From assembly GCF_035084215.1 (NCBI RefSeq), contig NW_027138525.1:1-44241 (forward strand): 44,241 nucleotides of DNA, in the 5' to 3' direction. Below the pieces are notes generated by a model. The model searched no databases. It worked only from the letters and a program-made list of their open reading frames with translations, and had not been told where the DNA came from. Both the position numbers and the translations under genes were made by a program. Positions within the stretch are counted from its first letter, which is position 1. Every line of letters begins with the position of its first letter. The stretch comes from Heptranchias perlo. Taxonomy: Eukaryota. Shown piece after piece: positions 11,650 through 42,114 of this stretch.

Positions 11650-12120
11650 CCCCCCCATCAGCAGGACCCTCGCTCCAGGAGATTGCTCGCCCTCCATCGA
11701 AGCTCGCTCCCCGAGGAGGGACTACGTTTCGTTGCCGAGTTCCGTGACAAGAACGGACGAGTCGCAAAGGACTCGATGGGGAGCGGGCGATGAAAGATGG
11801 AGCTTTCCCCCGTCAACCAGATCGTCACAGTCAACGGAGGGGAAGGGAGCCGAGCTCTGGCGTCGCTCGAGACTGGAGATCGGCCTGGGGAGGGCGGGGG
11901 GGGGGGGGGGAAAGGGGTGCGGTGGGGGGGCGCACGTTTGGGAATAAAAGCCAGCCCGGGGTCCGCACTCCTGATCCCTGACCCGGAAAACCCCGGTCGG
12001 ATGTAACCTGGGGGGCGAGCGGTGTGATTCGAGGCGATGCCCCACGCAGTCGAATAGCCGACGGGGGAGAACCGCCCGGTGGGTGGCGGGAGGTGTCCGC
12101 CCTCCGCCCCCGCCCCCCCC
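11650..12120 (+). repeat. Cassette copy 4 (AATAAA at 11943-11948), continuous with the unique TAPBPL promoter
   Basis: Same cassette, but it runs into unique CpG-rich sequence instead of back into the minisatellite, so it is probably the source copy. Confidence 0.85.
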
Positions 12121-12199
12121 CACCTCGACCCCCGGCGACCATTCCCCGGGGAGAGAGGAGATCATACCGTTCCGGGCGACCGACGGTTAACTTCGAAAG

Positions 12200-12280
12200 G
12201 CGGAGAGATTGGCTGCAGAGCCCGGAACGGAAGACAATGAGAGAAGCTTCCTGCAGCAGGAGAGAAAGTGAAAGCAGAAC
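12200..12280 (+). promoter_or_regulatory. Putative TAPBPL proximal promoter: inverted CCAAT (ATTGG 12208-12212), tandem ETS-like CCGGAACGGAAG (~12222-12233), ISRE/IRF-E GAAAGTGAAAGC (12264-12275)
   Basis: Motif matches 100-170 nt upstream of the ATG in CpG-rich sequence. IRF elements are typical of interferon-inducible MHC class I pathway genes. Confidence 0.65.
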
Positions 12281-12377
12281 ATGTCTCTCCCCTGCGAGGC
12301 CCTACCCCATCGAACGACCCTGAACCAGCCGGAGAGGACAGGACAGGACACGACCTGGGGGACAGAGACCACCGACA

Positions 12378-12414
12378 ATGAACCTCGCACTCCCCTGTCT
12401 CCTTCTCTCGCTGG
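12378..12414 (+). CDS. TAPBPL: TAPBPL exon 1 (signal peptide MNLALPCLLLSL)
   Basis: ACAATG in an A(-3) context, hydrophobic peptide, G|GTAAGA donor in phase 1 that matches exon 2. Confidence 0.85.
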
Positions 12415-15400
12415 GTAAGAAACTTGCCTCTCGTCCAGACCTGGGAGCGTTTGATGGGGACGGTGTAGAGGGAGCTTTACTCTGTATCTCACCCTGAGAG
12501 TGTTTGATGGGACAGTGTAGAGGGAGCTTTACTCTGTATCTAACCCTGTACCTGCCCTGGGAGTGTTTGATGGGACAGTGTAGAGGGAGCTTTACTCTGT
12601 ATCTAACCCTGTACCTGCCCTGGGAGTGTTTGATGGGACAGTGTAGAGGGAGCTTTACTCTGTATCTAACCCTGTACCTGCCCTGGGAGTGATTGATGGG
12701 ACAGTGTAGAGGGAGCTTTACTCTGTATCTAACCCTGTACCTGCCCTGGGAGTGTTTGATGGGACAGTGCAGAGGGAGCTTTACTCTGTATCTAACCCTG
12801 TACCTGCCCTGGGAGTGTTTGATGGGACAGTGTAGAGGGAGCTTTACTCTGTATCTAACCCTGTACCTGCCCCTGGGAGTGTTTGACGGGACAGTGTAGA
12901 GGGAGCTTTACTCTGTATCTAACCCTGTACCTGACCCTGGGAGTGTTTGACGGGACGGTGTAGAGGGAGCTTTACTCTGTGTCTAACCCTGTACCTGCCC
13001 TGGGAGTGTTTGATGGGACAGTGTAGAGGGAGCTTTACTCTGTATCTAACCCTGTACCTGCCCCTGGGAGTGTTTGACGGGACAGTGTAGAGGGAGCTTT
13101 ACTCTGTATCTAACCCTGTACCTGACCCTGGGAGTGTTTGACGGGACGGTGTAGAGGGAGCTTTACTCTGTATCTAACCCTGTACCTGCCCTGGGAGTGT
13201 TTGACGGGACAGTGTAGAGGGAGCTTTACTCTGTATCTAACCCTGTACCTGACCCTGGGAGTGTTTGATGGGACAGTGTAGAGGGAGCTTTACTCTGTAT
13301 CTAACCCTGTACCTGCCCTGGGAGTGTTTGATGGGACAGTGTAGAGGGAGCTTTACTCTGTATCTAACCCTGTACCTGCCCTGGGAGTGTTTGACGGGAC
13401 GGTGTAGAGGGAGCTTTACTCTGCATCTAACCCTGTACCTGACCCTGGGAGTGTTTGACGGGACAGTGTAGAGGGAGCTTTACTCTGTATCTAACCCTGT
13501 ACCTGCCCTGGGAGTGTTTGATGGGACAGTGTAGAGGGAGCTTTACTCTGTATCGAACCCTGTACCTGCCCTGGGAGTGTTTGACGGGATGGTGTAGAGG
13601 GAGCTTTACTCTGTATCTAACCCTGTACCTGACCCTGGGAGTGTTTGATGGGACGTTGTAGAGGGAGCTTTACTCTGTATCTAACCCTGTACCTGCCCTG
13701 GGAGTGTTTGATGGGACAGTGTAGAGGGAGCTTTACTCTGTATCTAACCCTGTACCTGCCCTGGGAGTGTTTGATGGGACAGTGTAGAGGGAGCTTTACT
13801 CTGTATCTAACCCTGTACCTGCCCTGGGAGTGTTTGACGGGACAGTGTAGAGGGAGCTTTACTCTGTATCTAACCCTGTACCTGACCCTGGGAGTGTTTG
13901 ACGGGACAGTGTAGAGGGAGCTTTACTCTGTATCTAACCCTGTACCTGCCCTGGGAGTGTTTGATGGGACAGTGTCGAGGGAGCTTTACTCTGTATCTAA
14001 CCCTGTACCTGCCCTGGGAGTGTTTGATGGGACAGTGTAGAGGGAGCTTTACTCTGTATCTAACCCTGTACCTGACCCTGGGAGTGTTTGATGGGACAGT
14101 GTCGAGGGAGCTTTACTCTGTATCTAACCCTGTACCTGCCCTGGGAGTGTTTGATGGGACGGTGTAGAGGGAGCTTTACTCTGTATCTAACCCTGTACCT
14201 GCCCTGGGAGTGTTTGATGGGACAGTGTAGAGGGAGCTTTACTCTGTATCTAACCCTGTACCTGCCCTGGGAGTGTTTGACGGGACAGTGTAGAGGGAGC
14301 TTTACTCTGTATCTAACCCTGTACCTGCCCTGGGAGTGTTTGATGGGACAGTGTAGAGGGAGCTTTACTCTGTATCTAACCCTGTACCTGCCCTGGGAGT
14401 GTTTGACGGGACAGTGTAGAGGGAGCTTTACTCTGTATCTAACCCTGCACCTGCCCTGGGAGTGTTTGATGGGACAGTGTAGAGGGAGCTTTACTCTGTA
14501 TCCAACCCTGTACCTGCCCTGGGAGTGTTTGACGGGACAGTGTAGAGGGAGCTTTACTCTGTATCTAACCCTGTACCTGCCCTGGGAGTGTTTGATGGGA
14601 CAGTGTAGAGGGAGCTTTACTCTGTATCTAACCCTGTACCTGCCCTGGGAGTGTTTGACGGGACAGTGTAGAGGGAGCTTTACTCTGTATCTAACCCTGT
14701 ACCTGCCCTGGGAGTGTTTGATGGGACAGTGTAGAGGGAGCTTTACTCTGTATCTAACCCTGTACCTGCCCTGGGAGTGTTTGATGGGACGGTGTAGAGG
14801 GAGCTTTACTCTGTATCTAACCCTGTAACTGCCCTGTGAGTGTTTGATGGGACAGTGTAGAGGGAGCTTTACTCTGTATCTAACCCTGTACCTGCCCTGG
14901 GAGTGTTTGACGGGACAGTGTAGAGGGAGCTTTACTCTGTATCTAACCCTGTACCTGCCCTGGGAGTGTTTGACGGGACAGTGTAGAGGGAGCTTTACTC
15001 TGTATCTAACCCTGTACCTGCCCTGGGAGTGTTTGATGGGACGGTGTAGAGGGAGCTTTACTCTGTATCTAACCCTGTACCTGCCCTGGGAGTGTTTGAT
15101 GGGACAGTGTAGAGGGAGCTTTACTCTGTATCTAACCCTGTACCTGCCCTGGGAGTGTTTGATGGGACAGTGTAGAGGGAGCTTTACTCTGTATCTAACC
15201 CTGTACCTGCCCTGGGAGTGTTTGATGGGACAGTGTAGAGGGAGCTTTACTCTGTATCTAACCCTGTACCTGCCCTGGGAGTGTTTGATGGGACGGTGTA
15301 GAGGGAGCTTTACTCTGTATCTAACCCTGTACCTGCCCTGGGAGTGTTTGATGGGACGGTGTAGAGGGAGCTTTACTCTGTATCTAACCCTGTACCTGAC

Positions 15401-18400
15401 CCTGGGAGTGTTTGATGGGACAGTGCAGAGGGAGCTTTACTCTGTATCTAACCCTGTACCTGCCCTGGGAGTGTTTGACGGGACAGTGTAGAGGGAGCTT
15501 TACTCTGTATCTAACCCTGTACCTGACCCTGGGAGTGTTTGACGGGACAGTGTAGAGGGAGCTTTACTCTGTATCTAACCCTGTACCTGACCCTGGGAGT
15601 GTTTGACGGGACAGTGTAGAGGGAGCTTTACTCTGTATCTAACCCTGTACCTGCCCTGGGAGTGTTTGACGGGACAGTGTAGAGGGAGCTTTACTCTGTA
15701 TCTAACCCTGTACCTGCCCTGGGAGTGTTTGATGGGACAGTGTAGAGGGAGCTTTACTCTGTATCTAACCCTGTACCTGCCCTGGGGGTGTTTGATGGGA
15801 CAGTGTAGAGGGAGCTTTACTCTGTATCTAACCCTGAACCTGCCCTGGGAGTGTTTGATGGGACAGTGTAGAGGGAGCTTTACTCTGTATCTAACCCTGT
15901 ACCTGCCCTGGGAGTGTTTGATGGGACAGTGTAGAGGGAGCTTTACTCTGTATCTAACCCTGTACCTGCCCTGGGTGTGTTTGATGGGACAGTGTAGAGG
16001 GAGCTTTACTCTGTATCTAACCCTGTACCTGCCCTGGGAGTGTTTGATGGGACAGTGTAGAGGGAGCTTTACTCTGTATCTAACCCTGTACCTGCCCTGG
16101 GAGTGTTTGATGGGACAGTGTAGAGGGAGCTTTACTCTGTATCTAACCCTGTACCTGACCCTGGGAGTGTTTGATGGGACAGTGTAGAGGGAGCTTTACT
16201 CTGTATCTAACCCTGTACCTGACCCTGGGAGTGTTTGATGGGACAGTGTGGAGGGAGCTTTACTCTGTATCTAACCCTGTACCTGACCCTGGGAGTGTTT
16301 GATGGGACAGTGTGGAGGGAGCTTTACTCTGTATCTAACCCTGTACCTGCCCTGGGAGTGTTTGACGGGACAGTGTAGAGGGAGCTTTACTCTGTATCTC
16401 ACCCTGTTGTATTCGTTCCCAGTCTTGGGCCTGCGAGCTCAATCTGAGCCCCTCTCTCCCCGTCAGGCCGTGGACCTGGTCCTGGATTGCTGGTTTGTGA
16501 AGCAGGGCGGGCGACTGACGACCTTCGGAGGGGGATTCAACCGGGACAAAGCTCTTTTCGTCCTGCGAAACATCAGTGTCCCTGAAGACGAAAGCAGCTC
16601 CACCTGGACTGGCTACGAACCCCGGGACGAGGACCGAGATCTGATCATCTTCGAGGGCGTTGGTGAGAGATCACATCAAGTTTACAGTCCAGAATCAGGC
16701 CGTTCGGCCCATCGTGCTCCGTGCTGGTGCTCATGCTCCACACGAGCCTCCTCCCTCCCCTCCTCCATCTCCCCCCTCTCCTTCCGTTCCTTTCTCCCTC
16801 ATGTGTCTATCCAGCTTCCCCCCTTAAATCCATCTCCACTATTCCCCTCGACTACTCCTCGAGGGACCGAGTTCCACATTCCCACCGCTCTCTGGGGAAA
16901 GAAGGTTCTCCTGAATTCCCCGATTGGATTTATTGGTGACTCTCTTATATTTATGGCCCCCCCCCTAGTTCTGGTCTCTCCCCCACAAATGGAGACATCT
17001 TCTCTACGTCTACCCTATCGAAACCCTTTCATAATCTTAAAGACCTCCATCAGGTCACACAGTGCTCCAAGTGTGGTCTAACCAAGGTATATGGAGACCA
17101 GAACTGTGCACAGTGCTCCGAGTGTGGTCTAACCAAGATATATGGAGACCAGAACTGTGCACAGTGCTCCAAGTGTGGTCTAACCCAGGTATCTGGAGAC
17201 CAGAACTGTGCACAGTGCTCCAAGTGTGGTCTAACCAAGGTATATGGAGACCAGAACTGTGCACAGTGCTCCAAGTGTGGTCTAACCAGGGTATATGGAG
17301 ACCAGAACTGTGCACAGTGCTCCAAGTGTGGTCTAACCAAGGTATATGGAGACCAGAACTGTGCACAGTGCTCCGAGTGTGGTCTAACCAAGGTATATGG
17401 AGACCAGAACTGTGCACAGTGCTCCGAGTGTGGTCTAACCAAGGTATATGGAGACCAGAACTGTGCACAGTGCTCCGAGTGTGGTCTAACCAAGGTATAT
17501 GGAGACCAGAACTGTGCACAGTGCTCCAAGTGTGGTCTAACCCAGGTATATGGAGACCAGAACTATGCACAGTGCTCCAAGTGTGGTCTAACCCAGGTAT
17601 ATGGAGACCAGAACTGCGCACAGTGCTCCAAGTGTGGTCTAACCAACGTATATGGAGACCAGAACTGTGCACAGTGCTCCAAGTGTGGTCTAACCAAGGT
17701 ATATGGAGACCAGAACTGTGCACAGTGCTCCAAGTGTGGTCTAACCCAGGTATATGGAGACCAGTACTGTGCACAGTGCTCCGAGTGTGGTCTAACCAAG
17801 GTATATGGAGACCAGAACTGTGCACAGTGCTCCGAGTGTGGTCTAACCAAGGTATATGGAGACCAGAACTGTGCACAGTGCTCCAAGTGTGGTCTAACCC
17901 AGGTATATGGAGACCAGAACTGTGCACAGTGCTCCGAGTGTGGTCTAACCAAGGTATATGGAGACCAGAACTGTGCACAGTGCTCCAAGTGTGGTCTAAC
18001 CAAGGTATATGGAGACCAGAACTGTGCACAGTGCTCCAAGTGTGGTCTAACCAAGGTATATGGAGACCAGAACTGTGCACAGTGCTCCAAGTGTGGTCTA
18101 ACCAAGGTATATGGAGACCAGAACTGTGCACAGTGCTCCAAGTGTGGTCTAACCAAGGTATATGGAGACCAGAACTGTGCACAGTGCTCCAAGTGTGGTC
18201 TAACCAAGGTATATGGAGACCAGAACTGTGCACAGTGCTCCAAGTGTGGTCTAACCAAGGTATATGGAGACCAGAACTGTGCACAGTGCTCCAAGTGTGG
18301 TCTAACCAAGGTATATGGAGACCAGAACTGTGCACAGTGCTCCGAGTGTGGTCTAACCAAGGTATATGGAGACCAGGACTGTGCACAGTGCTCCAAGTGT

Positions 18401-21400
18401 GGTCTAACCAAGGTATATGGAGACCAGAACTGTGCACAGTGCTCCGAGTGTGGTCTAACCAAGGTGTATGGAGACCAGAACTGTGCACAGTGCTCCAAGT
18501 GTGGTCTAACCAAGGTATATGGAGACCAGAACTGTACACAGTGCTCCAAGTGTGGTCTAACCAAGGTATATGGAGACCAGAACTGTGCACAGTGCTCCAA
18601 GTGTGGTCTAACCAAGGTATATGGAGACCAGAACTGTGCACAGTGCTCCAAGTGTGGTCTCACCAAGGTATATGGAGACCATAACTGTGCCCAGTGCTCC
18701 AAGTGTGGACTAACCCAGGTATATGGAGACCAGAACTGTGCATAGTGCTCCGAGTGTGGTCTAACCCAGGTATATGGAGACCAGAACTGTGCACAGTGCT
18801 CCGAGTGTGGACTAACCCAGGTATATGGAGACCAGAACTGTGCGCAGTGCTCCGAGTGTGGTCTAACCCAGGTATATGGAGACCAGAACTGTGCACAGTG
18901 CTCCGAGTGTGGTCTAACCCAGGTATATGGAGACCAGAACTGTGCACAGTGCTCCGAGTGTGGACTAACCCAGGTATATGGAGACCAGAACTGTGCACAG
19001 TGCTCCGAGTGTGGACTCACCAAGGTTCTATACAAGTTTAACAGAACTTCTCTGCTTTTCAATTCTATCAGGTTCTATTTCAGATTCCCTGCCCATTTTG
19101 CTCGGTAGAATGAGGAGAGGCGATATAAACTCTTTGGAACCTCCTCCAGCCCCTCCAACCCTCCGAGATCTCTGCACTCCTCCAATTCTGGCCCCTTGCG
19201 CCTCTCCCCGATTTCCATAGGCAGCCTGTGCCTTCAGCTGTCTGGGCGCCTTGCTCTGGAATATCCCCCCAAACATCCTCGCCTCAGTACTGACCCTCCG
19301 ACAGTGCGGCGCTCCCTCAGTACCGACCCTCCCACAGTGCGGCGCTCCCTCAGTACTGACCCTCCGACAGTGCGGCGCTCCCTCAGTACTGACCCTCCGA
19401 CAGTGCGGCGCTCCCTCAGTACTGACCCTCCGACAGTGCGGCCCTCCCTCAGTACTGACCCTCCGACAGTGCGGCGCTCCCTCAGTACTGACCCTCCGAC
19501 AGTGCAGCGTTCCCTCAGAACCGACCCTCCGACAGTGCGGCGCTCCCTCAGTACTGACCCTCCGACAGTGCGGCGCTCCCTCAGTACTGACCCTCCGACA
19601 GTGCGGCGCTCCCTCAGTACTGACCCTCCGACAGTGCGGCGCTCCCTCAGTACTGACCCTCCGACAGTGCGGCGCTCCCTCGGCACTGTCCCTCCCGGGG
19701 GAGTGGGAATAATCGGACAGCTCCCTCGAAAGAGCTGGCACGCTCCCCTCGGCCGGTTTCCCTCCTTTTTTGACTCTCCCTCCTCCCTCCAGTTTCAGAT
19801 GTCCCGATCCCAGACGGGGATCTGCTGCTTCACGCAGACTGTGGAGGGCAAGACGTTAGCTGTGAGATCGCCAGCTTCCACCCGGAGAGGGGCCCGGGAG
19901 AGGAGGAGGAGGACGAGGCCTCCGCGTCCTGGTTCATCGGGAGCCTCCGGATCGAGGGAGGGGCTCTGAGCATCTGCCTGGTGATGCGGAACGTGCCTGT
20001 CCCCGGGGAGGAGAGGGTGGGGCGGGCCTCGAACGAGGGGCTAAACCTGCCACTCAGTGCGAGAGGGACCATCAGTCTATCAGGTACGCAGAGAGGGAAT
20101 GGTCAGGAAGGGGCTTGGGTCCATTGGGATTGTGTACAGTGGGAGTGAATGGGAAGGGGTTTGGTCCATTGGGATTGTGTACAGTGGGAGTGAATGGGAA
20201 GGGGTTTGGTCCCTTGGGATTGTGTACAGTGGGAGTGAATGGGAAGGGGTTTGGTCCATTGGGATTGTGTACAGTGGGAGTGAACGGGAAGGGGTTTGGA
20301 CCATTGGGATTGTGTACAGTGGGAGTGAATGGGAAGGGGTTTGGTCCATTGGGATTGTGTAGAGTGGGAGTGAACGGGAAGGGGTTTGGTCCATTGGGAT
20401 TGTGTACAGTGGGAGTGAATGGGAAGGGGTTTGGTCCATTGGGATTGTGTACAGTGGGAGTGAATGGGAAGGGGTTTGATCCATTGGGATTGTGTACAGG
20501 GGGAGTGAATAGGAAGGGGTTTGGTCCATTGGGATTGTGTACAGTGGGAGTGAATGGGAAGGGGTTTGGTCCATTGGGATTGTGTACAGTGGGAGTGAAT
20601 GGGAAGGGGTTTGGTCCATTGGGATTGTGTACAGTGGGAGTGAATGGGAAGGGGTTTGGTCCATTGGGATTGTGTACAGTAGCAGTGAATGGGAAGGGGT
20701 TTGGTCCATTGGGATTGTGTACAGTGGGAGTGAATGGGAAGGGGTTTGGTCCATTGGGATTGTGTACAGTGGGAGTGAATGGGAAGGGGTTTGGTCCATT
20801 GGGATTGTGTACAGTGGGAGTGAATGGGAAGGGATTTGATCCATTGGGATTGTGTACAGGGGGAGTGAATAGGAAGGGGTTTGGTCCATTGGGATTGTGT
20901 ACAGTGGGAGTGAATGGGAAGGGGTTTGGTCCATTGGGATTGTGTACAGTGGGAGTGAATGGGAAGGGGTTTGGTCCATTGGGATTGTGTACAGTGGGAG
21001 CGAACGGGAAGGGGTTTGGTCCATTGGGATTGTGTACAGTGGGAGTGAATGGGAAGGGGTTTGGTCCCATTGGGATTGTGTACAGTGGGAGTGAATGGGA
21101 AGGGGTTTGGTCCCATTGGGATTGTGTACAGTGGGAGTGAATGGGAAGGGGTTTGGTCCATTGGGATTGTGTACAGTGGGAGTGAACGGGAAGGGGTTTG
21201 ATCCATTGGGATTGTGTAGAGTGGGAGTGAATGGGAAGGGGTTGGTCCATTGGGATTGTGTACGGTGGGAGTGAATGGGAAGGGGTTTGGTCCATTGGGA
21301 TTGTGTACGGTGGGAGTGAACGGGAAGGGGTTTGATCCATTGGGATTGTGTACAGTGGGAGTGAATGGGAAGGGGTTTGGTCCATTGGGATTGTGTACAG

Positions 21401-27400: not shown

Positions 27401-30400
27401 AGAGAGGGGACTGAGAGACACCAGTCAGTGTACAGATATCTCCCTGAGAGAGAGAGGGGACTGAGAGACACCAGTCAGTGTACAGATATCTCCCTGAGAG
27501 AGAGGGACTGAGAGACACCAGTCAGTGTACAGATATCTCCCTGAGAGAGAGGGACTGAGAGACACCAGTCAGTGTACAGATATCTCCCTGAGAGAGAGGG
27601 GACTGAGAGACACCAGTCAGTGTACAGATATCTCCCTGAGAGAGAGAGGACTGAGAGACACCAGTCAGTGTACAGATATCTCCCTGAGAGAGAGGGACTG
27701 AGAGACACCAGTCAGTGTACAGATATCTCCCTGAGAGAGAGGGACTGAGAGACACCAGTCAGTGTACAGATATCTCCCTGAGAGAGAGAGGGGACTGAGA
27801 GACACCAGTCAGTGTACAGATATCTCCCTGAGAGAGAGGGGACTGAGAGACACCAGTCAGTGTACAGATATCTCCCTGAGAGAGAGAGGGGACTGAGAGA
27901 CACCAGTCAGTGTACAGATATCTCCCTGAGAGAGAGGGACTGAGAGACACCAGTCAGTGTACAGATATCTCCCTGAGAGAGAGAGGGGACTGAGAGACAC
28001 CAGTCAGTGTACAGATATCTCCCTGAGAGAGAGGGGACTGAGAGACACCAGTCAGTGTACAGATATCTCCCTGAGAGAGAGGGACTGAGAGACACCAGTC
28101 AGTGTACAGATATCTCCCTGAGAGAGAGGGGACTGAGAGACACCAGTCAGTGTACAGATATCTCCCTGAGAGAGAGGGGACTGAGAGACACCAGTCAGTG
28201 TACAGATATCTCCCTGAGAGAGAGGGGACTGAGAGACACCAGTCAGTGTGCAGATATCTCCCTGAGAGAGAGAGGACTGAGAGACACCAGTCAGTGTACA
28301 GATATCTCCCTGAGAGAGAGGGACTGAGAGACACCAGTCAGTGTACAGATATCTCCCTGAGAGAGAGGGACTGAGAGACACCAGTCAGTGTACAGATATC
28401 TCCCTGAGAGAGAGGGGACTGAGAGACACCAGTCAGTGTACAGATATCTCCCTGAGAGAGAGGGGACTGAGAGACACCAGTCAGTGTACAGATATCTCCC
28501 TGAGAGAGAGGGGACTGAGAGACACCAGTCAGTGTACAGATATCTCCCTGAGAGAGAGGGACTGAGAGACACCAGTCAGTGTACAGATATCTCCCTGAGA
28601 GAGAGAGAGAGAGGGGACTGAATTCTCTCTGATCTTTTCCAGAACCTCCGCAGGTGAGGCTATTGCCAGAGGTGCTGTATTTCCGGGAGGGAATGAGAGA
28701 GACGTTGTCCTGTGAGATTGGGCGATATTACCCTCTGGACGTGACAGTGACCTGGTCGCTGGTCAATCCCCTGGACAATCTCGGAGCTCGACCCATGTCC
28801 CCGGTCACCTACACCAGCCACCGTCAAAACAAGGAAGGCACTTTTAACATCACAGCTCAGATTGAACTGGCCCCAGGTCCAGACGAGACAGAGGTTGTCT
28901 ACACCTGTGAGGTCTCCCACGTCGCCTTGGAGACTCCTCTCTCCAGGAGCCTCCGTCTGCGAAGATCGGCCGGTAAGGAGAGGGTTAATCCCCCCCCTCC
29001 GATAGGGGAACGGGCCGGTGTCTGTAACCGGGAGGAGGTGGGCGAGAGGGTTAATCCCCCTCCGATAGGGGAACGGGCCGGTGTCTGTAACCGGGAGGAG
29101 GTGGGCGAGAGGGTTAATCCCCCTCCGATAGGGGAACGGGCCGCCCTGGTGTCTGTAACCGGGAGGAGGTGGGCGAGAGGGTTAATCCCCCTTCCGATCG
29201 GGGCTGGATTATTTGCCTCCGTGCCGCCTCCCATAGTCGAATGGCCTCTGGCTCCCTCTGCCTTCGCTCAGAAAGTGGAAAGTGTCAGGGGCGGGGGGAG
29301 GTGGGATGGAATTGTCGTGAGGTTAACCCGGACCCCCGGGGAGGTTTGGGCGGGGACAGAGAGAGTTTCGAGGTTGGAATCCATCCAATGTTCCCATTTC
29401 CCCCCTCTCGTTGGTCTCTAATCTTCTCCCTCCTCTTCCTCCCCCCCCACCCCGCCTTCCCCCCTCTTTCAGAATCCACGGAGAGCAGTCACTCAGCGCT
29501 GTACGGGACCCTCATCGCCTCCGTCCTGTTCGTCCTCGCAATCGTACATTACTGTCGACAGCATCGAGGACCAGCGGGTAAGGTAGCAGAACACTCCGAG
29601 AACCTCGGAGGAGATTGAGTTAACGGGACCCCTTTTAAAGAGGGAGTCTCTCTCTCTCTCCATCAGAGACCCCTTTTAAAGGGGGAGTCTCTCTATCAGG
29701 GACCCCCTTTAAAGAGGGAGTCTCTCTATCAGGGACCCCCTTTAAAGAGGGAGTCTCTCTATCAGGGACCCCTTTTAAAGAGGGAGTCTCACCGTCAGGG
29801 ACCCCTTTTAAAAAGGGAGTCTCTCTCCGTCAGGGACCCCTTTTAAAGAGGGAGTCTCTCTATCAGGGACCCCTTTTAAAGAGGGAGTCTCTCTATCAGG
29901 GACCCCTTTTAAAGAGGGAGTCTCTCTATCAGGGACCCCCTTTAAAGAGGGAGTCTCTCTATCAGGGACCCCTTTTAAAGAGGGAGTCTCTCCGTCAGAG
30001 ACCCCTTTTAAAGAGGGAGTCTCTCTCTCTCCATCAGGGACCCCTTTTAAAGAGGGAGTCTCTCTCCGTCAGGGACCCCTTTTAAAGAGGGAGTCTCTCT
30101 ATCAGGGACCCCTTTTAAAGAGAGAGTCTCTCCGTCAGAGACCCCTTTTAAAGAGGGAGTCTCTCTCTCTCCATCAGGGACCCCCTTTAAAGAGGGAGTC
30201 TCTCTATCAGGGACCCCTTTTAAAGAGGGAGTCTCTCTCTCTCCGTCAGAGACCCCTTTTAAAGAGGGAGTCTCTCTCTCTCTCCGTCAGAGACCCCTTT
30301 TAAAGAGGGAGTCTCTCTCTCTCCATCAGGGACCCCTTTTAAAGAGGGAGTCTCTCCGTCAGGGACCCCTTTCAAAGAGGGAGTCTCTCTCTCTCTCCAT

Positions 30401-33400
30401 CAGGGACCCCTTTTAAAGAGGGAATCTCTCTCTCTCTCCGTCAGAGACCCCTTTTAAAGAGGGAGTCTCTCCATCAGGGACCCCTTTTAAAGAGGGAGTC
30501 TCTCCGTCAGGGACCCCTTTTAAAGAGGGAGTCTCCCTCCCTCCGTCAGGGACCCCTTTTAAAGAGGGAGTCTCTCCGTCAGGGACCCCTTTTAAAGAGG
30601 GAGTCTCTCTCCCTCCGTCAGGGACCCCTTTTAAAGAGGGAGTCTCTCTCCGTCAGAGACCCCTTTTAAAGAGGGAGTCTCTCCATCAGGGACCCCTTTT
30701 AAAGAGGGAGTCTCTCTCTCTCTATCAGGGACCCCTTTTAAAGAGGGAGTCTCTCCGTCAGAGACCCCTTTTAAAGAGAGAGTCTCTCTCTCTCCGTCAG
30801 AGACCCCTTTTAAAGAGGGAGTCTCTCCATCAGGGACCCCTTTTAAAGAGAGAGTCTCTCCATCAGGGACCCCTTTTAAAGAGGGAGTCTCTCTCTCTCT
30901 CCATCAGGGACCCCTTTTAAAGAGGGAGTCTCTCCATCAGGGACCCCTTTTAAAGAGGGAGTCTCTCCGTCAGGGACCCCTTTTAAAGAGGGAGTCTCTC
31001 TCCCTCCATCAGGGACCCCTTTTAAAGAGGGAGTCTCTCTCTCTCTCCATCAGGGACCCCTTTTAAAGAGGGAGTCTCTCCATCAGGGACCCCTTTTAAA
31101 GAGGGAGTCTCTCTCCCTCCGTCAGGGACCCCTTTTAAAGAGGGAGTCTCTCTCTCTCTCCGTCAGGGACCCCTTTTAAAGAGGGAGTCTCTCTCTCTCT
31201 ATCAGGGACCCCCTTTAAAGAGGGAGTCTCTCCGTCAGAGACCCCTTTTAAAGAGGGAGTCTCTCTCTCTCCATCAGGGACCCCTTTTAAAGAGGGAGTC
31301 TCTCTCCCTCCGTCAGGGACCCCTTTTAAAGAGGGAGTCTCTCTCTCTCTATCAGGGACCCCTTTTAAAGAGGGAGTCTCTCTCTCTCTATCAGGGACCC
31401 CCTTTAAAGAGGGAGTCTCTCTGTCGGGACCCCTTTTAAAGAGGGAGTCTCTCCGTCAGTGACCCCTTTTAAAGAGGGAGCCTCTCTCTCTCTATCAGGG
31501 ACCCCCTTTAAAGAGGGAGTCTCTCTGTCGGGACCCCTTTTAAAGAGGGAGTCTCTCCGTCAGGGACCCCTTTTAAAGAGGGAGTCTCTCTCCCTCCGTC
31601 AGGGACCCCTTTTAAAGAGGGAGTCTCTCTCTCTCTATCAGGGACCCCTTTTAAAGAGGGAGTCTCTCCATCAGGGACCCCTTTTAAAGAGGGAGTCTCT
31701 CCGTCAGAGACCCCTTTGAAAGAGGGAGTCTCTCCGTCAGAGACCCCTTTTAAAGAGGGAGTCTCTCCATCAGGGACCCCTTTTAAAGAGGGAGTCTCTC
31801 TCTCTCTATCAGGGACCCCTTTTAAAGAGGGAGTCTCTCCGTCAGGGACCCCTTTTAAAGAGGGAGTCTCTCTCTCTCCGTCAGAGACCCCTTTTAAAGA
31901 GAGAGTCTCTCCATCAGGGACCCCTTTTAAAGAGGGAGTCTCTCCGTCAGGGACCCCTTTTAAAGAGGGAGTCTCTCTCTCTCCGTCAGAGACCCCTTTT
32001 AAAGAGAGAGTCTCTCCATCAGGGACCCCTTTTAAAGAGGGAGTCTCTCCGTCAGGGACCCCTTTTAAAGAGGGAGTCTCTCTCTCTCTATCAGGGACCC
32101 CCTTTAAAGAGGGAGTCTCTCTGTCGGGACCCCTTTTAAAGAGGGAGTCTCTCTCCCTCCGTCAGGGACCCCTTTTAAAGAGGGAGTCTCTCTCTCTCTA
32201 TCAGGGACCCCTTTAAAAGAGGGAGTCTCTCTCTCTCTATCAGGGACCCCTTTTAAAGAGGGAGTCTCTCTCTCTCTATCAGGGACCCCCTTTAAAGAGG
32301 GAGTCTCTCTGTCGGGACCCCTTTTAAAGAGGGAGTCTCTCCGTCAGTGACCCCTTTTAAAGAGGGAGTCTCTCCGTCAGTGACCCCTTTTAAAGAGGAA
32401 GCCTCTCTCTCTCTATCAGGGACCCCCTTTAAAGAGGGAGTCTCTCTGTCGGGACCCCTTTTAAAGAGGGAGTCTCTCCGTCAGGGACCCCTTTTAAAGA
32501 GGGAGTCTCTCTCCCTCCGTCAGGGACCCCTTTTAAAGAGGGAGTCTCTCTCCCTCCGTCAGAGACCCCTTTAAAGAGGGAGTCTCTCTGTCAGGGACCC
32601 CTTTTAAAGAGGGAGTCTCTCTCTCTCTCCATCAGGGACCCCTTTTAAAGAGGGAATCTCTCTCTCTCTCCGTCAGAGACCCCTTTTAAAGAGGGAGTCT
32701 CTCCATCAGGGACCCCTTTTAAAGAGGGAGTCTCTCCGTCAGGGACCCCTTTTAAAGAGGGAGTCTCCCTCCCTCCGTCAGGGACCCCTTTTAAAGAGGG
32801 AGTCTCTCCGTCAGGGACCCCTTTTAAAGAGGGAGTCTCTCTCCCTCCGTCAGGGACCCCTTTTAAAGAGGGAGTCTCTCTCCGTCAGAGACCCCTTTTA
32901 AAGAGGGAGTCTCTCCATCAGGGACCCCTTTTAAAGAGGGAGTCTCTCTCCGTCAGAGACCCCTTTTAAAGAGGGAGTCTCTCCGTCAGAGACCCCTTTT
33001 AAAGAGAGAGTCTCTCTCTCTCCGTCAGAGACCCCTTTTAAAGAGGGAGTCTCTCCATCAGGGACCCCTTTTAAAGAGAGAGTCTCTCTCTCTCCGTCAG
33101 AGACCCCTTTTAAAGAGAGAGTCTCTCTCTCTCCGTCAGAGACCCCTTTTAAAGAGGGAGTCTCTCCATCAGGGACCCCTTTTAAAGAGAGAGTCTCTCC
33201 ATCAGGGACCCCTTTTAAAGAGGGAGTCTCTCTCTCTCTCCATCAGGGACCCCTTTTAAAGAGGGAGTCTCTCCATCAGGGACCCCTTTTAAAGAGGGAG
33301 TCTCTCCGTCAGGGACCCCTTTTAAAGAGGGAGTCTCTCTCCCTCCGTCAGGGACCCCTTTTAAAGAGCGAGTCTCTCTCTCTCCGTCAGGGACCCCTTT

Positions 33401-35215
33401 TAAAGAGGGAGTCTCTCCATCAGGGACCCCCTTTAAAGAGGGAGTCTCTCTGTCGGGACCCCTTTTAAAGAGGGAGTCTCTCCGTCAGAGACCCCTTTTA
33501 AAGAGGGAATCTCTCTGTCAGGGACCCCTTTTAAAGAGGGAGTCTCTCTGTTAGAGACCCCTTTTAAAGAGGGAGTCTCTCCATCAGGGACCCCTTTTAA
33601 AGAGGGAGTCTCTCCGTCAGAGACCCCTTTGAAAGAGGGAGTCTCTCTGTTAGAGACCCCTTTTAAAGAGGGAGTCTCTCCATCAGGGACCCCTTTTAAA
33701 GAGGGAGTCTCTCCGTCAGAGACCCCTTTGAAAGAGGGAGTCTCTCTGTTAGAGACCCCTTTTAAAGAGGGAGTCTCTCCATCAGGGACCCCTTTTAAAG
33801 AGGGAGTCTCTCCGTCAGAGACCCCTTTTAAAGAGGGAGTCTCTCTATCAGGGACCCCTTTTAAAGAGGGAGTCTCTCTATCAGGGACCCCTTTTAAAGA
33901 GGGAGTCTCTCCATCAGGGACCCCTTTTAAAGAGGGAGTCTCTCCGTCAGAGACCCCTTTGAAAGAGGGAGTCTCTCCGTCAGAGACCCCTTTTAAAGAG
34001 GGAGTCTCTCCATCAGGGACCCCTTTTAAAGAGGGAGTCTCTCCGTCAGAGACCCCTTTGAAAGAGGGAGTCTCTCCATCAGGGACCCCTTTTAAAGAGG
34101 GAGTCTCTCCGTCAGAGACCCCTTTTAAAGAGGGAGTCTCTCCATCAGGGACCCCTTTTAAAGAGGGAGTCTCTCCCTCTCTGTCAGGGACCCCTTTTAA
34201 AGAGGGAGTCTCACCGTCAGAGACCCCTTTTAAAGAGGGAGTCTCTCTCTCTCCATCAGAGACCCCTTTTAAAGAGGGAGTCTCTCTATCAGGGACCCCC
34301 TTTAAAGAGGGAGTCTCTCTATCAGGGACCCCCTTTAAAGAGGGAGTCTCTCTCTATCTGGGACCCCTTTTAAAGTGGGAGTTTCTCTCCGTCAGGGACC
34401 CCTTTTAAAGAGGGAGTCTCTCCGTCAGGGACCCCTTTTAAAGAGGGAGTCTCTCTATCAGGGACCCCTTTTAAAGAGGGAGTCTCTCTATCAGGGACCC
34501 CTTTTAAAGAGGGAGTCTCTCTCTCTCCGTCAGAGACCCCTTTTAAAGAGAGAGTCTCTCCGTCAGGGACCCCTTTTAAAGAGGGAGTCTCTCCGTCAGG
34601 GACCCCTTTTAAAGAGGGAGTCTCTCTCTCTCCGTCAGAGACCCCTTTTAAAGAGAGAGTCTCTCCGTCAGGGACCCCTTTTAAAGAGAGAGTCTCTCCG
34701 TCAGAGACCCCTTTTAAAGAGGGAGTCTCTCCGTCAGGGACCCCTTTTAAAGAGGGAGTCTCTCCGTCAGGGACCCCTTTTAAAGAGGGAATCTCTCTCT
34801 CTCTCTCCATCAGGGACCCCTTTTAAAGAGGGAGTCTCTCTATCAGGGACCCCTTTTAAAGAGGGAGTCTCTCCGTCATGGGAACGCAGAGCAGGAAACA
34901 CCCAGGCTGTATCCCCGGCCTTGGCTGTCTCGAGGACCCCCTCCCCCCATTAGAAATCTAACCCCTTTCTCCTTCTCTCCTTCTCCCCCAGGACCCCTGA
35001 ACGGAGCAGGACAGGCCGAGGTGAGTTCGTCGCCCATTCTCCCCGACCCCAGCCCATCGCGCCCTCTTGGCGCAAAAGAAAATGGCCGCCGGGCCACTGG
35101 GCCCCAGAGCCTGCCTCTCGATTAGCCCTGGCAAACCCGCCGTCTGGCGTCACTGACCGCCCACCCCCGCCAACTGCTTTCAACTTTCGTCCCATCGCAG
35201 GTGAGGCCGAACTGA
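12378..35215 (+). CDS. TAPBPL: TAPBPR (tapasin-related protein), complete 8-exon gene, 460 aa: join(12378..12414,16423..16662,19793..20083,22323..22658,28643..28972,29473..29577,34992..35020,35201..35215)
   Basis: All introns are GT-AG with consistent phases (1,1,1,1,1,1,0) and there is no internal stop. Motifs RQAVDLVLDCW, IIFEG, LLHADC..VSCEI, LNLPLS.RGT, LDCGF..SVEWRLQHKG.G, DEGTYIC, YYPLDV.VTW, YTCEVSH.ALE.PL and the TM IASVLFVLAI align co-linearly with human TAPBPR as recalled. Confidence 0.92.
12440..16405 (+). repeat. 63-bp minisatellite filling TAPBPL intron 1 (CTGGGAGTGTTTGATGGGACAGTGTAGAGGGAGCTTTACTCTGTATCTAACCCTGTACCTGCC), ~63 copies
   Basis: Highly homogeneous tandem units, with 64-bp variants containing CTGACCC. 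Confidence 0.97.
16423..16662 (+). CDS. TAPBPL: TAPBPL exon 2 (N-terminal domain including the peptide-editing loop)
   Basis: CCCAG|TC acceptor; VLGLRAQSEPLSPRQAVDLVLDCWFVKQGGRLTTFGGGFNRDKALFVLRNISV...DLIIFEGV; G|GTGAGA donor. Confidence 0.93.
16672..19075 (-). mobile_element. CR1-type LINE 3' fragment with an internal deletion, hosting the 51-bp array
   Basis: The minus strand reads KSREVLLNLYRTLV.PH.EHCAQFWSPY (CR1 ORF2 C-terminal region). After the array it reads DLMEVFKIMKGFDRVDVEK... and continues into CR1-like 3' sequence toward 16680. Confidence 0.85.
17056..19025 (-). repeat. 51-bp minisatellite, ~38 copies, derived from CR1 ORF2 (YTLVRPHLEHCAQFWSP)n
   Basis: Unit CACAGTGCTCCAAGTGTGGTCTAACCAAGGTATATGGAGACCAGAACTGTG, in frame with the flanking unique CR1 sequence. 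Confidence 0.95.
19138..19283 (+). mobile_element. Short degenerate L2-type LINE 3' fragment
   Basis: CTCCTCCAGCCCC...CCCTCCGAGATCTCTGCACTCCTCCAATTCTGGCC...CTCTGGAAT resembles the reverse complement of the L2 sequence at ~39410-39555. Confidence 0.6.
19283..19690 (+). repeat. 33-bp minisatellite CTCAGTACTGACCCTCCGACAGTGCGGCGCTCC, ~12 copies
   Basis: Direct tandem units. The reverse complement (CAGTACTGAGGGAGCGCCGCACTGTCGGAGG) resembles Deu-domain SINE sequence (from memory, unverified). Confidence 0.9.
19793..20083 (+). CDS. TAPBPL: TAPBPL exon 3 (second half of the N-terminal domain); not present as an ORF in the supplied track
   Basis: Long polypyrimidine tract + CCAG|TT. Reads VSDVPIPDGDLLLHADCGGQDVSCEIASFHPERGPGEEEEDEASASWFIGSLRIEGGALSICLVMRNVPVPGEERVGRASNEGLNLPLSARGTISLS, then G|GTACGC donor. 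291 nt, phase preserved. Confidence 0.93.
20107..22291 (+). repeat. 45-bp minisatellite filling intron 3 (CCATTGGGATTGTGTACAGTGGGAGTGAATGGGAAGGGGTTTGGT), ~48 copies
   Basis: Homogeneous tandem units, each with four GGG(G) runs. Confidence 0.97.
22323..22658 (+). CDS. TAPBPL: TAPBPL exon 4 (IgV domain)
   Basis: CCCAG|TG; VNFLVFTRTPTIKTGLGQSVLLDCGF...SVEWRLQHKGSGRMVY...EGNVSLRLDDFTVRDEGTYICTVRGSVGQAQQTIQVQVL; G|GTACGT. Confidence 0.95.
22668..28620 (+). repeat. ~48-bp minisatellite filling intron 4 (GAGAGACACCAGTCAGTGTACAGATATCTCCCT(GA)nGGGGACT), ~120-125 copies
   Basis: Tandem units whose length varies with the internal (GA)n microsatellite. Confidence 0.97.
28643..28972 (+). CDS. TAPBPL: TAPBPL exon 5 (IgC1 domain)
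   Basis: TTTTCCAG|AA; EPPQVRLLPE...LSCEIGRYYPLDVTVTW...TSHRQNKEGTFNITA...YTCEVSHVALETPLSRSLRLRRSA; G|GTAAGG. Confidence 0.95.
28978..29200 (+). repeat. Short ~63-bp tandem repeat (~3.5 copies) at the start of intron 5
   Basis: GAGAGGGTTAATCCCC..CCGATAGGGGAACGGGCCGGTGTCTGTAACCGGGAGGAGGTGGGC at ~28978, 29044, 29107 and (partial) 29175. Confidence 0.9.
29473..29577 (+). CDS. TAPBPL: TAPBPL exon 6 (transmembrane)
   Basis: Polypyrimidine + TTTCAG|AA; ESTESSHSALYGTLIASVLFVLAIVHYCRQHRGPA; G|GTAAGG. Confidence 0.9.
29625..34877 (+). repeat. 33-41 bp quasi-palindromic minisatellite filling intron 6 (CAGGGACCCCTTTTAAAGAGGGAGTC(TC)nCGT), roughly 145 copies
   Basis: Tandem units with a variable (TC)n spacer. 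The core is an imperfect inverted repeat centred on TTTAAA. Confidence 0.97.
34992..35020 (+). CDS. TAPBPL: TAPBPL exon 7 (29-nt cytoplasmic exon, GPLNGAGQAE)
   Basis: CTAAC branch site, 25+ nt pyrimidine tract, CCAG| acceptor and consensus GAG|GTGAGT donor; phase 1 to 0. Confidence 0.75.
35201..35215 (+). CDS. TAPBPL: TAPBPL exon 8 coding part (VRPN*)
   Basis: CTGAC branch site and pyrimidine-rich CCCATCGCAG| acceptor 180 nt after exon 7. In-frame TGA at 35213-35215; downstream AATAAA at 37677. Confidence 0.6.
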   Translation: MRPN

Positions 35216-35371
35216 GCTCTTCGACATTTGGGCCGAGTCCGGGAGAGACCCGGTGGGGGGGACACCCCGTCCATCGAGAAGAGGAGACACGGAGCAGCGA
35301 GTCGGGACCAGGATCTCGGGCCGAGTGCCGAGTTCCCCAGCTCCCAGCCGGTGTGGTGAGCAGGGACTCGA

Positions 35372-37650
35372 GCCTTCCCATCGGAGACCCTCCCTCTAAT
35401 CCCCCTAACCCTCCCATCGGAGACCCTCCCTCTAATCCCCCGAACCCTCCCATCGGAGACCCTCCCTCTAATCCCCCTAACCCTCCCATCGGAGACCCTC
35501 CCTCTAATCCCCCGAACCCTCCCATCGAAGACCCTCCCTCTAATCCCCCGAACCCTCCCATCGGAGACCCTCCCTCTAATCCCCCGAACCCTCCCATCGG
35601 AGACCCTCCCTCTAATCCCCCTAACCCTCCCATCGGAGACCCTCCCTCTAATCCCCCTAACCCTCCCATCGGAGACCCTCCCTCTAATCCCCCGAACCCT
35701 CCCATCGGAGACCCTCCCTCTAATCCCCCTAACCCTCCCATCGGAGACCCTCCCTCTAATCCCCCGAACCCTCCCATCGGAGACCCTCCCTCTAATCCCC
35801 CTAACCCTCCCATCGGAGACCCTCCCTCTAATCCCCCTAACCCTCCCATCGGAGACCCTCCCTCTAATCCCCCGAACCCTCCCATCGGAGACCCTCCCTC
35901 TAATCCCCCGAACCCTCCCATCGGAGACCCTCCCTCTAATCCCCCTAACCCTCCCATCGGAGACCCTCCCTCTAATCCGCCTATCCCTCCCATCAAAGAC
36001 CCTCCCTCTAATCCCCCTAACCCTCCCATCGGAGACCCTCCCTCCAGTCCCCTAACCCTCCCATCGAAGACCCTCCCTCTAATCCCCCTAACCCTCCCAT
36101 CGGAGACCCTCCCTCTAATCCCCCTAACCCTCCCATCGGAGACCCTCCCTCTAATCCCCTGAACCCTCCCATCGAAGACCCTCCCTCTAATCCCCCTAAC
36201 CCTCCCATCGAAGACCCACCCTCTAATCCCCCTAACCCTCCCATCGAAGACCCTCCCTCTAATCCCCCTAACCCTCCCATCGAAGACCCTCCCTCTAATC
36301 CCCCTAACCCTCCCATCGAAGACCCTCCCTCCAGCCCCCTAACCCTCCCATCGGAGACCCTCCCTCTAATCCCCCTAACCCTCCCATCGAAGACCCTCCC
36401 TCTAATCCCCCTAACCCTCCCATCGGAGACCCTCCCTCTAATCCCCCTAACCCTCCCATCGAAGACCCTCCCTCTAATCCCCCTAACCCTCCCATCGAAG
36501 ACCCTCCCTCTAATCCCCCTAACCTTCCCATCGAAGACCCTCCCTCTAATCCCCTGAACCCTCCCATCGAAGACCCTCCCTCTAATCCCCCTAACCCTCC
36601 CATCGAAGACCCTCCCTCCAGCCCCCTAACCCTCCCATCGAAGACCCTCCCTCCAGTCCCCTAACCCTCCCATCAAAGACCCTCCCTCTAATCCCCCTAA
36701 CCCTCCCATCGAAGCCCCTCCCTCCAGTCCCCTAACTCATCGAAGACCCTCCCTCCAGTCCCTTAACCCATCGAAGCCCCTCCCTCCAGTCCCCTAACTC
36801 ATCGAAGACCCTCCCTCCAGTCCCTTAACCCATCGAAGACCCTCCCTCCAGTCCCCTAACTCATCGAAGACCCTCCCTCCAGTCCCCTAACTCATCGAAG
36901 CCCCTCCCTCCAGTCCCCCTTAACCCATCGAAGACCCTCCCTCCAGTCACCCTAACCCATCGAAGACCCTCCCTCCAGTCCCCCTAACCCATCGAAGACC
37001 CTCCCTCCAGTCCCCTAACCCATCGAAGCCCCTCCCTCCAGTCCCCAACCCATCGAAGCCCCTCCCTCCAGTCCCCTAACCCATCGAAGCCCCTCCCTCC
37101 AGTCCCCCTTAACCCATCGAAGACCCTCCCTCCAGTCCCCCTAACCCATCGAAGACCCTCCCTCCAGTCCCCCTAACCCATCGAAGACCCTCCCTCCAGT
37201 CTCCCTAACCCATCGAAGCCCCTCCCTCCAGTCCCCCTAACCCAGCGAAGACCCTCCCTCCAGTCCCTTAACCCAGCGAAGACCCTCCCTCCAGTCCCCC
37301 TAACCCATCGAAGACCCTCCCTCCAGTCCCCTAACCCATCGAAGACCCTCCCTCCAGTCCCCCCAACCCATCGAAGCCCCTCCCTCCAGTCCCTTAACCC
37401 ATCGAAGACCCTCCCTCCAGTCCCCTAACCCATCGAAGCCCCTCCCTCCAGTCCCCCTAACCCATCGAAGCCCCTCCCTCCAGTCCCTTAACCCATCGAA
37501 GACCCTCCCTCCAGTCCCCTAACTCATCGAAGCCCCTCCCTCCAGTCCCCCTTAACCCATCGAAGACCCTCCCTCCAGTCACCCTAACCCATCGAAGACC
37601 CTCCCTCCAGTCCCCCTAACCCATCGAAGACCCTCCCTCCAGTCCCCCAA
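35372..37650 (+). repeat. C-rich minisatellite in the presumed TAPBPL 3' UTR: 36-bp unit CCCTCCCATCGGAGACCCTCCCTCTAATCCCCCTAA grading (~36700) into a ~31-bp unit CCCATCGAAGACCCTCCCTCCAGTCCCCCTAA
   Basis: Tandem units lying between the stop codon and the first downstream AATAAA. Confidence 0.95.
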
Positions 37651-37676
37651 TGTGTTGTTTGACCAATGATGGTGTG

Positions 37677-42095: not shown

Positions 42096-42114
42096 AGGGA
42101 GGTGCCGGAGGAGC

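Follow-up and report, generated by a model that had tools for sequence, protein, structure and literature searches.

The window analyzed here is an entire unplaced contig of 44,241 bases from the sevengill shark Heptranchias perlo, with an N gap inside. It carries TAPBPL on the forward strand in eight exons, with all seven introns bounded by GT..AG and a coding sequence (CDS) of 1,383 nt. The CDS has no lesion, as the first-pass annotation of this DNA had claimed; its translation is identical to RefSeq XP_067833217.1 and its GC3 is 71%. The coding part of exon 1 (12378..12414; signal peptide) is followed by exon 2 (16423..16662), exon 3 (19793..20083), exon 4 (22323..22658; Ig V-set domain), exon 5 (28643..28972; Ig C1-set domain), the hydrophobic, transmembrane-like exon 6 (29473..29577), exon 7 (34992..35020) and the coding part of exon 8 including the stop codon (35201..35215). 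RefSeq isoform X1 of TAPBPL reads through into intron 7.

The protein has an N-terminal domain, an Ig V domain and an Ig C1 domain, and the top PDB matches of exons 3 and 4 were human TAPBPR. In pairwise comparisons it was 38% identical to human TAPBPR, 42% to gar TAPBPR (filed as TAPBPR in the available text of Grimholt, 2018; PMC5824609) and 32% to lungfish tapasin; orthologs from other shark orders were only 51–54% identical to it. Judged by these comparisons, the gene is the ortholog of TAPBPR (human TAPBPL), nearer TAPBPR than tapasin, and peptide editing would be its putative role in the shark. Four shark TAPBPL orthologs were found; the contigs that carry them measure 44 kb, 24 kb, 2.15 Mb and 3.7 Mb. 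Elsewhere the region lies on big chromosomes (188 Mb in coelacanth and 197 Mb in reedfish). Upstream of TAPBPL, the last coding exon of an ENaC alpha/delta-type subunit was detected by phmmer on the forward strand (2945..3097; human ENaC delta, 1.9e-5; alpha, 0.0024). In the present assembly, the ENaC-like reading moves between frames toward the 5' end of this exon. We take this neighbor to be SCNN1A by synteny, an ENaC gene presumably lying beside TAPBPL on human 12p13 as well.

Between the two genes, a unique, array-free and CpG-rich promoter/5' UTR region precedes exon 1 on the forward strand (11650..12377; GC 0.65 and CpG observed/expected 0.83 over 11,650–12,414). Positions 12,150–12,414 were covered by a single contig in sequencing run X1 and by a single contig in run X5. 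The 1,809-nt contig of run X5 (putative RNA, depth 508) ended precisely at 12,414, the first donor, whereas the DNA contig of run X1 continued past it. Cover of exon 1 was zero in the runs of organisms B and C, which is no sign that the gene is absent there; for organism A, eight runs are listed, all of one sample and read as contigs.

Tandem arrays occupied six of the seven TAPBPL introns, and one more lay ahead of the poly(A) signal. Intron 1 held 62 units of 63/64 bp (12440..16407), as indicated by TRF, unit lengths and run contigs. TRF further placed 38.6 copies of 51 bp (array A, 17058..19026; also by unit analysis) and 12.5 copies of 33 bp (array B, 19282..19695) in intron 2, 48.6 copies of 45 bp in intron 3 (20106..22292), about 124 copies of 48 bp in intron 4 (22668..28621) and 3.4 units of 63–68 bp in intron 5 (28978..29203). 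Unit analysis resolved 148 units of 32–43 bp in intron 6 (29625..34878) and, in the presumed 3' UTR (35376..37648), a polarized array whose unit length falls from 36 to 31 bp; the AATAAA at 37,677 is the only one within 35,200–37,800 and the sole basis for calling this a 3' UTR. The unit periods listed by the first-pass annotation (63; 51 + 33; 45; 48; 63; 33–41; 36/31 bp) were thus borne out by TRF. Arrays made up 19,972 of 21,455 intron bases (93.1%), with 45–99% cover per array-bearing intron, and no coding base lay in an array. All array data come from one locus in one individual.

The annotation had also claimed that the units are mutually unrelated and that the arrays stop just short of the splice signals. 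No full-length resemblance was found between units; of the 66 unit pairs, 10 differed from shuffles at P ≤ 0.05, each with a low local score (15–24). The claimed margins between the array and the donor/acceptor agreed with ours (25/15 nt in intron 1, 22/30 nt in intron 3 and 9/21 nt in intron 4), but flushness at both ends was confined to these three introns, the margins being 395/97 nt in intron 2, 5/269 nt in intron 5 and 47/113 nt in intron 6. Since the non-array remainder was so small in the flush introns (intron 1, 40 nt; intron 3, 52 nt; intron 4, 30 nt), flushness was rejected as an independent signal. Remainders of 40 and 30 nt are below the usual size of a vertebrate intron, and therefore the older unique DNA of introns 1 and 4 has probably been lost or replaced.

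The unit of intron 1, at 63 bp, represents a local variant of a family that is abundant and has a unit of about 67–68 bp. Four of 24 runs were examined for the family (the small shares in organisms D–G and the metagenomes were not counted as evidence), with 24,457 contigs placed in run X1 and 16,197 in run X10; it was also present in run contigs of two other organisms, and go-back joints showed that it is tandem elsewhere in all four runs examined. At the TAPBPL locus, 61 of 62 units were 63 or 64 bp long and none was longer; given the family form of about 67–68 bp, the intron 1 array is therefore one local variant multiplied. The last unit contained the only branch-point-like motif of the final 60 nt, with its A at −22, and shared one variant of this motif with the first unit. 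Exact DNA searches of viral and metagenome contigs with the intron 1 unit gave no match, a blank that is uninformative; as the family is abundant in shark runs, shark DNA is probably absent from the collections scanned. When the array was translated and compared with proteins, none of 8,000 candidates matched, and this search is insensitive because the unit length of the family differs from that in intron 1.

In a gene model of a catshark, an LXR exon is followed by the same unit family as in intron 4. The last unit of intron 4 also has a branch-like motif at −22. In the search with this unit, 57 of 60 matches were less than 50% identical and were taken as chance periodic matches, and two further matches of 80–84% were to metagenome proteins and were not used as evidence; exact matches in metagenome contigs numbered zero, which is again uninformative.

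In intron 2, the 51-bp array lies within an antisense LINE 3' fragment (16692..19080, reverse strand), which is presumably CR1-type. Both flanks of the array and the unit itself aligned in order to a LINE copy at 42,100–42,850, the unit corresponded to 17 codons of the LINE ORF, in frame, and about 130–155 nt of the LINE were absent beside the array. A second dispersed-element fragment (19131..19285), which we take to be L2-type, was homologous to 39,397–39,565 (129 identities, 24 mismatches, 17 gaps; blastn E = 1e-15). A Pfam search of the LINE and dispersed-element fragments gave no match. The adjoining 33-bp unit is a candidate for SINE origin, on our assumption.

Arrays of this kind were not restricted to TAPBPL. 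A G-rich array with a unit of about 23 bp filled the last intron of the ENaC neighbor (9..2811; TRF; 20 G-quadruplex [G4] motif matches on the forward strand), and about 311 copies of an approximately 26-bp unit occupied the intergenic stretch (3352..11647; TRF). Downstream, an array with a unit of about 79 bp lay inside a dispersed element, presumably L2-type (39538..40810; TRF and blastn); its left flank and the unit start were aligned to the element, and its right flank was assigned by reading only. Arrays accounted for 92% of the non-coding DNA in 1–37,700 and for only 38.5% of 37,701–44,003. This supports the earlier proposal of a regional process in which non-coding DNA is amplified and exons set the limits. 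Since the ENaC neighbor and the intergenic DNA look the same as TAPBPL, array growth is regional rather than immune-specific, and nothing points to an immune-specific role of the arrays. G4 motifs occurred in 5 of 11 arrays; G4 stress as a common trigger was rejected, as the other six had none.

The internal order of the units indicated that they were amplified in place. Identical multi-unit blocks exceeded those in unit-order shuffles in five of seven arrays (introns 3, 4 and 6, presumed 3' UTR and intergenic; P ≤ 0.005), including an 8-unit block repeated identically at 30,412 and 32,644 in intron 6; no such signal was present in the intron 1 and intron 2A arrays. In introns 1 and 2A, units resembled their neighbors more closely than distant units, and this difference was strong in the presumed 3' UTR (1.98 vs 7.29 edits), whereas neighboring and distant units were about equally similar in introns 3, 4 and 6. 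In intron 5, the three full units differed by indels alone, and an array at birth, as first proposed, is indistinguishable from one that has recently contracted.

We favor, with a probability of roughly 0.65, the reading that shark DNA which is GC-rich, gene-dense and difficult to assemble has a regional instability, by which short stretches between exons grow into tandem arrays, as in the sequence stuttering of birds. The seed would be whatever the locus contains, be it a stretch from inside a LINE or a single copy of a minisatellite family that is widespread in sharks; such an origin was found for the downstream array and for three of the intronic ones. Amplification and homogenization in place would follow, a pattern that we observed, with slippage, gene conversion or unequal exchange as possible mechanisms. 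Turnover would delete unique intron DNA until the donor, polypyrimidine tract and acceptor were left, and the last unit may provide the branch point. Exons, promoter and CDS were spared, and the first donor was used exactly. Most likely, the arrays are by-products that the gene tolerates and not a device of an immune gene. Several observations count against this scheme: interspersed-repeat fragments persist in intron 2 and downstream, exon stuttering was not seen, the block signal was missing from introns 1 and 2A, neighboring units were no more similar than distant ones in introns 3, 4 and 6, the array share fell to 38.5% in 37,701–44,003, and the data cover one locus in one individual.

Alternatively, ready-made satellite arrays might have been inserted or copied from other loci, with introns as tolerated landing sites. 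The abundance and tandem arrangement of the intron 1 family elsewhere and the occurrence of the intron 4 family in a catshark gene fit this explanation. We consider it unlikely, however, given the local unit of 63/64 bp against about 67–68 bp in the family, the collinearity of the 51-bp and 79-bp arrays with their host elements, and the internal block duplications and polarity that argue for growth in place.

Still less likely is the model of the first-pass annotation, which derives every array from unique DNA inside a short ancestral intron, amplified privately at that site. With the array reduced to a single unit, introns 1, 3, 4 and 6 shrank to 103, 97, 78 and 193 nt, respectively, within the proposed range of 80–200 nt or close to it and resembling the array-free intron 7 (35021..35200; 180 nt), but introns 2 and 5 collapsed no further than 831 and 337 nt. 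The branch-like variant shared by the edge units of intron 1 also looks as if an older single copy had been kept. All three intronic units compared with outside sequences (intron 1, intron 4 and 51-bp) nevertheless proved not to be private; the model keeps some room for the 33-bp unit of array 2B, the 45-bp unit of intron 3 and the units of introns 5 and 6 and the presumed 3' UTR. Further, the units of introns 1 and 4 belong to families common to other species, so that equating a collapsed array with the ancestral intron is unsupported.

It seems very improbable that the arrays serve as selected regulators, for expression timing, splicing or allelic diversity, of an MHC class I editor. The presumed 3' UTR does contain one array, that of intron 3 has a G-rich coding strand that is G4-prone (43 long-loop motif matches), and intron 6 contains 59 acceptor-like motifs, but the same architecture was present in the intron of the ENaC neighbor, the intergenic stretch and the downstream LINE. 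An assembly artefact, in the arrays themselves or in their lengths, is equally improbable: the window does span a whole contig with an N gap, unit lengths are noisy in arrays near the contig ends and the neighbor's exon is frameshifted, but the inner arrays have clean unit lengths, many distinct variants and non-random order, and contig 1 of run X1, possibly from the assembly's own sample, matched 12,150–12,478 across the array start with no differences.

The annotation had called this architecture unusually systematic, but it is already known gene-wide on bird dot chromosomes (PMC12954441). In the available text of Hron (2026; PMC12954441), sequence stuttering is named on avian dot chromosomes and found outside birds in gerbils only, with no case in fishes reported. 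As at the shark locus, the arrays there are confined between exons and the CDS is intact. The repeat clusters in birds are described as arising from local, originally unique sequence, whereas the shark seeds compared were LINE pieces or dispersed families; bird dot euchromatin is GC-rich and said to be depleted of interspersed repeats (PMC12954441), whereas LINE fragments persist at the shark locus, where the CDS has a GC3 of 71%. Exon edges are expanded at 3.4% of dot introns (PMC12954441), but we saw no exon stuttering at TAPBPL, where no exon-to-intron match rose above shuffles (best match, 30.1 bits; maxima in 20 shuffles, 26.5–31.0) and, with just eight introns, none was expected. Further, extensive within-species variation of intron length, which is a defining feature of stuttering, stands beside shark lengths read from the contigs of one individual, and the VNTR haplotype of the first-pass annotation would be a prediction.

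According to the portions available, more than 70% of intron sequence on the dot chromosomes of zebra finch is tandem repeat, and in chicken the minisatellite PO41 is shared across dot euchromatin, so that birds also use common families (bioRxiv 10.1101/2025.10.17.683159; PMC9974502). The units of bird intronic minisatellites are often multiples of 10–11 bp and G4-rich in these accounts, in contrast to shark units of 23–79 bp with G4-free arrays in the majority. In elasmobranchs, smaller chromosomes are reported to have a higher simple tandem repeat content, with regions of 50–100% tandem repeat in a stingray and the epaulette shark (PMC10620051; bioRxiv 10.1101/2025.06.08.657570; PMC11406177); the parts consulted describe windows and chromosomes, not per-intron architecture or unit origin. 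The 51-bp and 79-bp arrays resemble reported TE-derived minisatellites in being amplified internal LINE pieces, the chicken HinfI repeat having a known link to CR1 ORF2 (PMC9659126, as available), but such derivation accounts for single arrays and not for their occurrence in nearly every intron. The amphioxus "mirage" minisatellites are likewise intronic, harmless to splicing and evolving in concert, but their units cross the exon–intron boundary in the text available (PMC3087553), which none of the TAPBPL array units did.

The TAPBPL locus shows a stuttering-like pattern in a shark, with the traced seeds being mobile-element scraps and widespread shark families, not private sequence; no new function of TAPBPL is revealed. 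Sharks and birds are about 400 million years apart. The TAPBPL region, presumably on chromosome 1 in chicken, is not known to correspond to a dot chromosome. The accessible portions of Lamb (2021) and Hara and Kuraku (2023) do not place it on a defined ancestral microchromosome. Hron (2026; PMC12954441, available text) proposed that stuttering and gene loss are driven by a chromosome having stayed small and unfused for long. We tentatively suggest, at somewhat less than even odds, that stuttering is the fate of small, long-unfused gnathostome chromosomes and that it arose independently in sharks, on a region that is macrochromosomal in birds, fed by old shark minisatellites and LINE scraps. 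If so, the array-bearing introns would be hypervariable in length, and the fragmented or missing TAPBPL/CD4/LAG3 region in shark and ray assemblies would be explained. Incomplete assembly has been noted for the elasmobranch immune genes of this region (PMC10751288, in part), and the arrays offer a concrete reason why these genes elude assembly. The same genes can be compared on small scaffolds in sharks and on large chromosomes in coelacanth and reedfish, and the shark case would thus serve as an independent test of the unfused-chromosome proposal.

The TAPBPL gene comprises eight exons spanning positions 12,378-35,215, with GT..AG at every intron. As the first-pass annotation had claimed, its 1,383-nt coding sequence carries no lesion, and the translation was identical to RefSeq XP_067833217.1 ('tapasin-related protein-like isoform X2', Heptranchias perlo). 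The best PDB match of exons 3 and 4 was human TAPBPR; exon 4 encodes an Ig V-set domain and exon 5 a C1-set domain. The product was 42% identical to gar XP_015193320, filed as TAPBPR in excerpts from Grimholt (2018, PMC5824609), 38% to human TAPBPR and 32% to lungfish tapasin. RefSeq isoform X1 (490 aa) continues from exon 7 into intron 7 (35,021-35,200), the sole array-free intron, which is CpG-rich (o/e 0.8 over 35,021-35,375). TAPBPR identity between shark orders was just 51-55% (homologs P0005, P0127, P0009 and P0010), which seems fast for sharks, and 84% between two lamniforms.

Tandem Repeats Finder reproduced the array periods reported at first pass. With array edges set by hand, arrays occupied 19,972 of the 21,455 intron bases (93.1%) and left the coding sequence entirely free. 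The donor/acceptor margins of introns 1-6 were 25/15, 395/97, 22/30, 9/21, 5/269 and 47/113 nt; the proposal that arrays abut the splice signals thus holds at both ends in three of the six array-bearing introns and not in the other three. Collapsing each array to one unit shortened introns 1-6 to 103, 831, 97, 78, 337 and 193 nt.

Each array had been described as private to its intron. Of the eight units, those of introns 1, 2A (the 51-bp array of intron 2) and 4 were put to the test, and this was contradicted in all three cases. The 51-bp unit of intron 2A is a piece of a surrounding LINE. On the minus strand, this unit and its two flanks (right flank first) are collinear with the element copy at 42,100-42,850; ~130-155 nt of the element is absent beside the array, and the unit equals 17 in-frame codons of the element's ORF. 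Array 2A was thus amplified in place from the LINE. A downstream 79-bp array likewise lies inside a second element, a fragment of which also occurs in intron 2. We take the elements to be CR1 and L2; Pfam detected RVT_1 in a third fragment only.

For intron 1, positions 12,150-12,560 were compared with the assembled contigs of four of the 24 sequencing runs listed for the region (85% likeness threshold). Matching contigs numbered 24,457 of 26.0 million records in X1 and 3,895 of 1.6 million in X5 (one sample of organism A), 902 of 1.0 million in X9 (organism B) and 16,197 of 29.8 million in X10 (organism C), where neither counts nor summed depth are copy numbers. Nearly all fell on the intron 1 repeat. 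The promoter and exon 1 of TAPBPL were found in one contig each of X1 and X5 and, at the same likeness, in none of X9 or X10. Joints and loose ends of the run contigs indicated that the family elsewhere is tandem with a period of ~67-68 bp, whereas no local unit exceeds 64 bp and 61 of the 62 measure 63 or 64 bp. What was multiplied in intron 1 is therefore a single local variant of a family that occurs genome-wide and across species. X5, a putative RNA run, is likewise rich in the ~67-68-bp family (3,895 matching contigs), which may therefore be widely transcribed.

The translated intron 4 array yielded 60 protein matches; of 10 looked up, one was named as shark. The top match was Scyliorhinus torazame scyTo_0024318 (P0138; 91% identity over 67 residues), a gene model on a 3-kb contig that passes from an LXR-type DNA-binding domain directly into the 48-bp repeat family. 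From the protein, this model would represent an exon plus, directly downstream, an intronic array of that family. It hints at the same exon-then-array architecture in another shark order.

Substitutions relative to the commonest unit type amounted to 0.9-4.1% in intronic arrays; intron 5 units differ by indels alone. Identical multi-unit blocks exceeded 200 unit-order shuffles in five of seven arrays (for example, eight identical units at 30,412 and 32,644) and were not found in introns 1 and 2A. The UTR array is graded from 36-bp to 31-bp units. In introns 1, 2A and the UTR a unit resembled its neighbours more closely than remote units; introns 3, 4 and 6 showed hardly any such difference. 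Block duplications, gradient and neighbour similarity fit local turnover by unequal exchange or conversion. The non-array remainder is 40 nt in intron 1 and 30 nt in intron 4, with branch-like motifs at -22 within the last unit of both, which suggests erosion or replacement of older unique DNA there.

An X5 contig (1,809 nt, depth 508) stops matching exactly at the first TAPBPL donor, past which a DNA contig runs into the intron 1 array. By length alone, its 1,468 further bases would correspond to exons 2-7 (1,331 nt) plus 137 nt. Exon edges copied into TAPBPL introns were not detected above shuffles (best match 30.1 bits; shuffle maxima 26.5-31.0). Intron 6 (29,625-34,878) contains 59 pyrimidine-tract-plus-AG motifs, potential decoy acceptors; branch-like motifs number 72 in intron 1 and 47 in intron 2.

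The suggested regional process was borne out: arrays constitute 92% of non-coding DNA in 1-37,700, including the last intron of the upstream ENaC-type neighbour and 8.3 kb of intergenic DNA. Because the pattern extends to these sequences, the immune angle was abandoned; a 'VNTR haplotype' is at most hypothetical. The array share drops to 38.5% in 37,701-44,003, where LINE fragments dominate. The upstream exon (2,945-3,097) is ENaC alpha/delta-like, which fits what we take to be the SCNN1A-TAPBPL neighbourhood of human 12p13. This last exon of the neighbour has two frame changes near its 5' end; the gene may be decaying, or the consensus may be wrong at this noisy end of the contig. A CR1-type fragment (37,790-39,290) encloses a LINE 3' fragment (38,090-39,135) that carries an A-tail and an open RVT_1 frame. 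The contig is otherwise GC-rich, but its end (42,848-44,241) contrasts sharply in comprising an AT-rich satellite (11% GC over 43,001-44,000) and an N gap. Among 120 listed of 144 TAPBPL homologs were four shark species, on contigs of 44 kb, 24 kb, 2.15 Mb and 3.7 Mb, and no named ray or chimaera, an absence that is weak given 8,000 scored candidates. The homolog lies on a 188-Mb sequence in coelacanth, 197-Mb in reedfish and 16-Mb in gar.

Amphioxus mirages are known (PMC3087553, in part), a class not applicable to the TAPBPL arrays. Excerpts from other studies describe transposon-derived minisatellites (PMC9659126) and, at window level, small shark chromosomes rich in tandem repeats (PMC10620051; bioRxiv 10.1101/2025.06.08.657570; PMC11406177). 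A literature search covering few subscription papers found no prior shark report of such architecture. On chicken dot chromosomes, according to excerpts from Hron et al. (2026, PMC12954441), 'sequence stuttering' denotes introns that each hold one or more expanded motifs, confined between exons; 86% of dot introns are length-variable and 3.4% copy exon edges. TAPBPL shares two of these features, per-intron expanded motifs and their confinement between exons. Unlike the 'unique local seed' of stuttering in that account, however, none of the three intronic arrays tested arose from one. The locus probably works like sequence stuttering; we stop short of counting it as a full member of that class. 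TAPBPL is a real, clear single-locus example. Birds, too, use shared minisatellites (bioRxiv 10.1101/2025.10.17.683159 and PMC9974502, both in part), and thus the difference between shark and bird may be one of degree.
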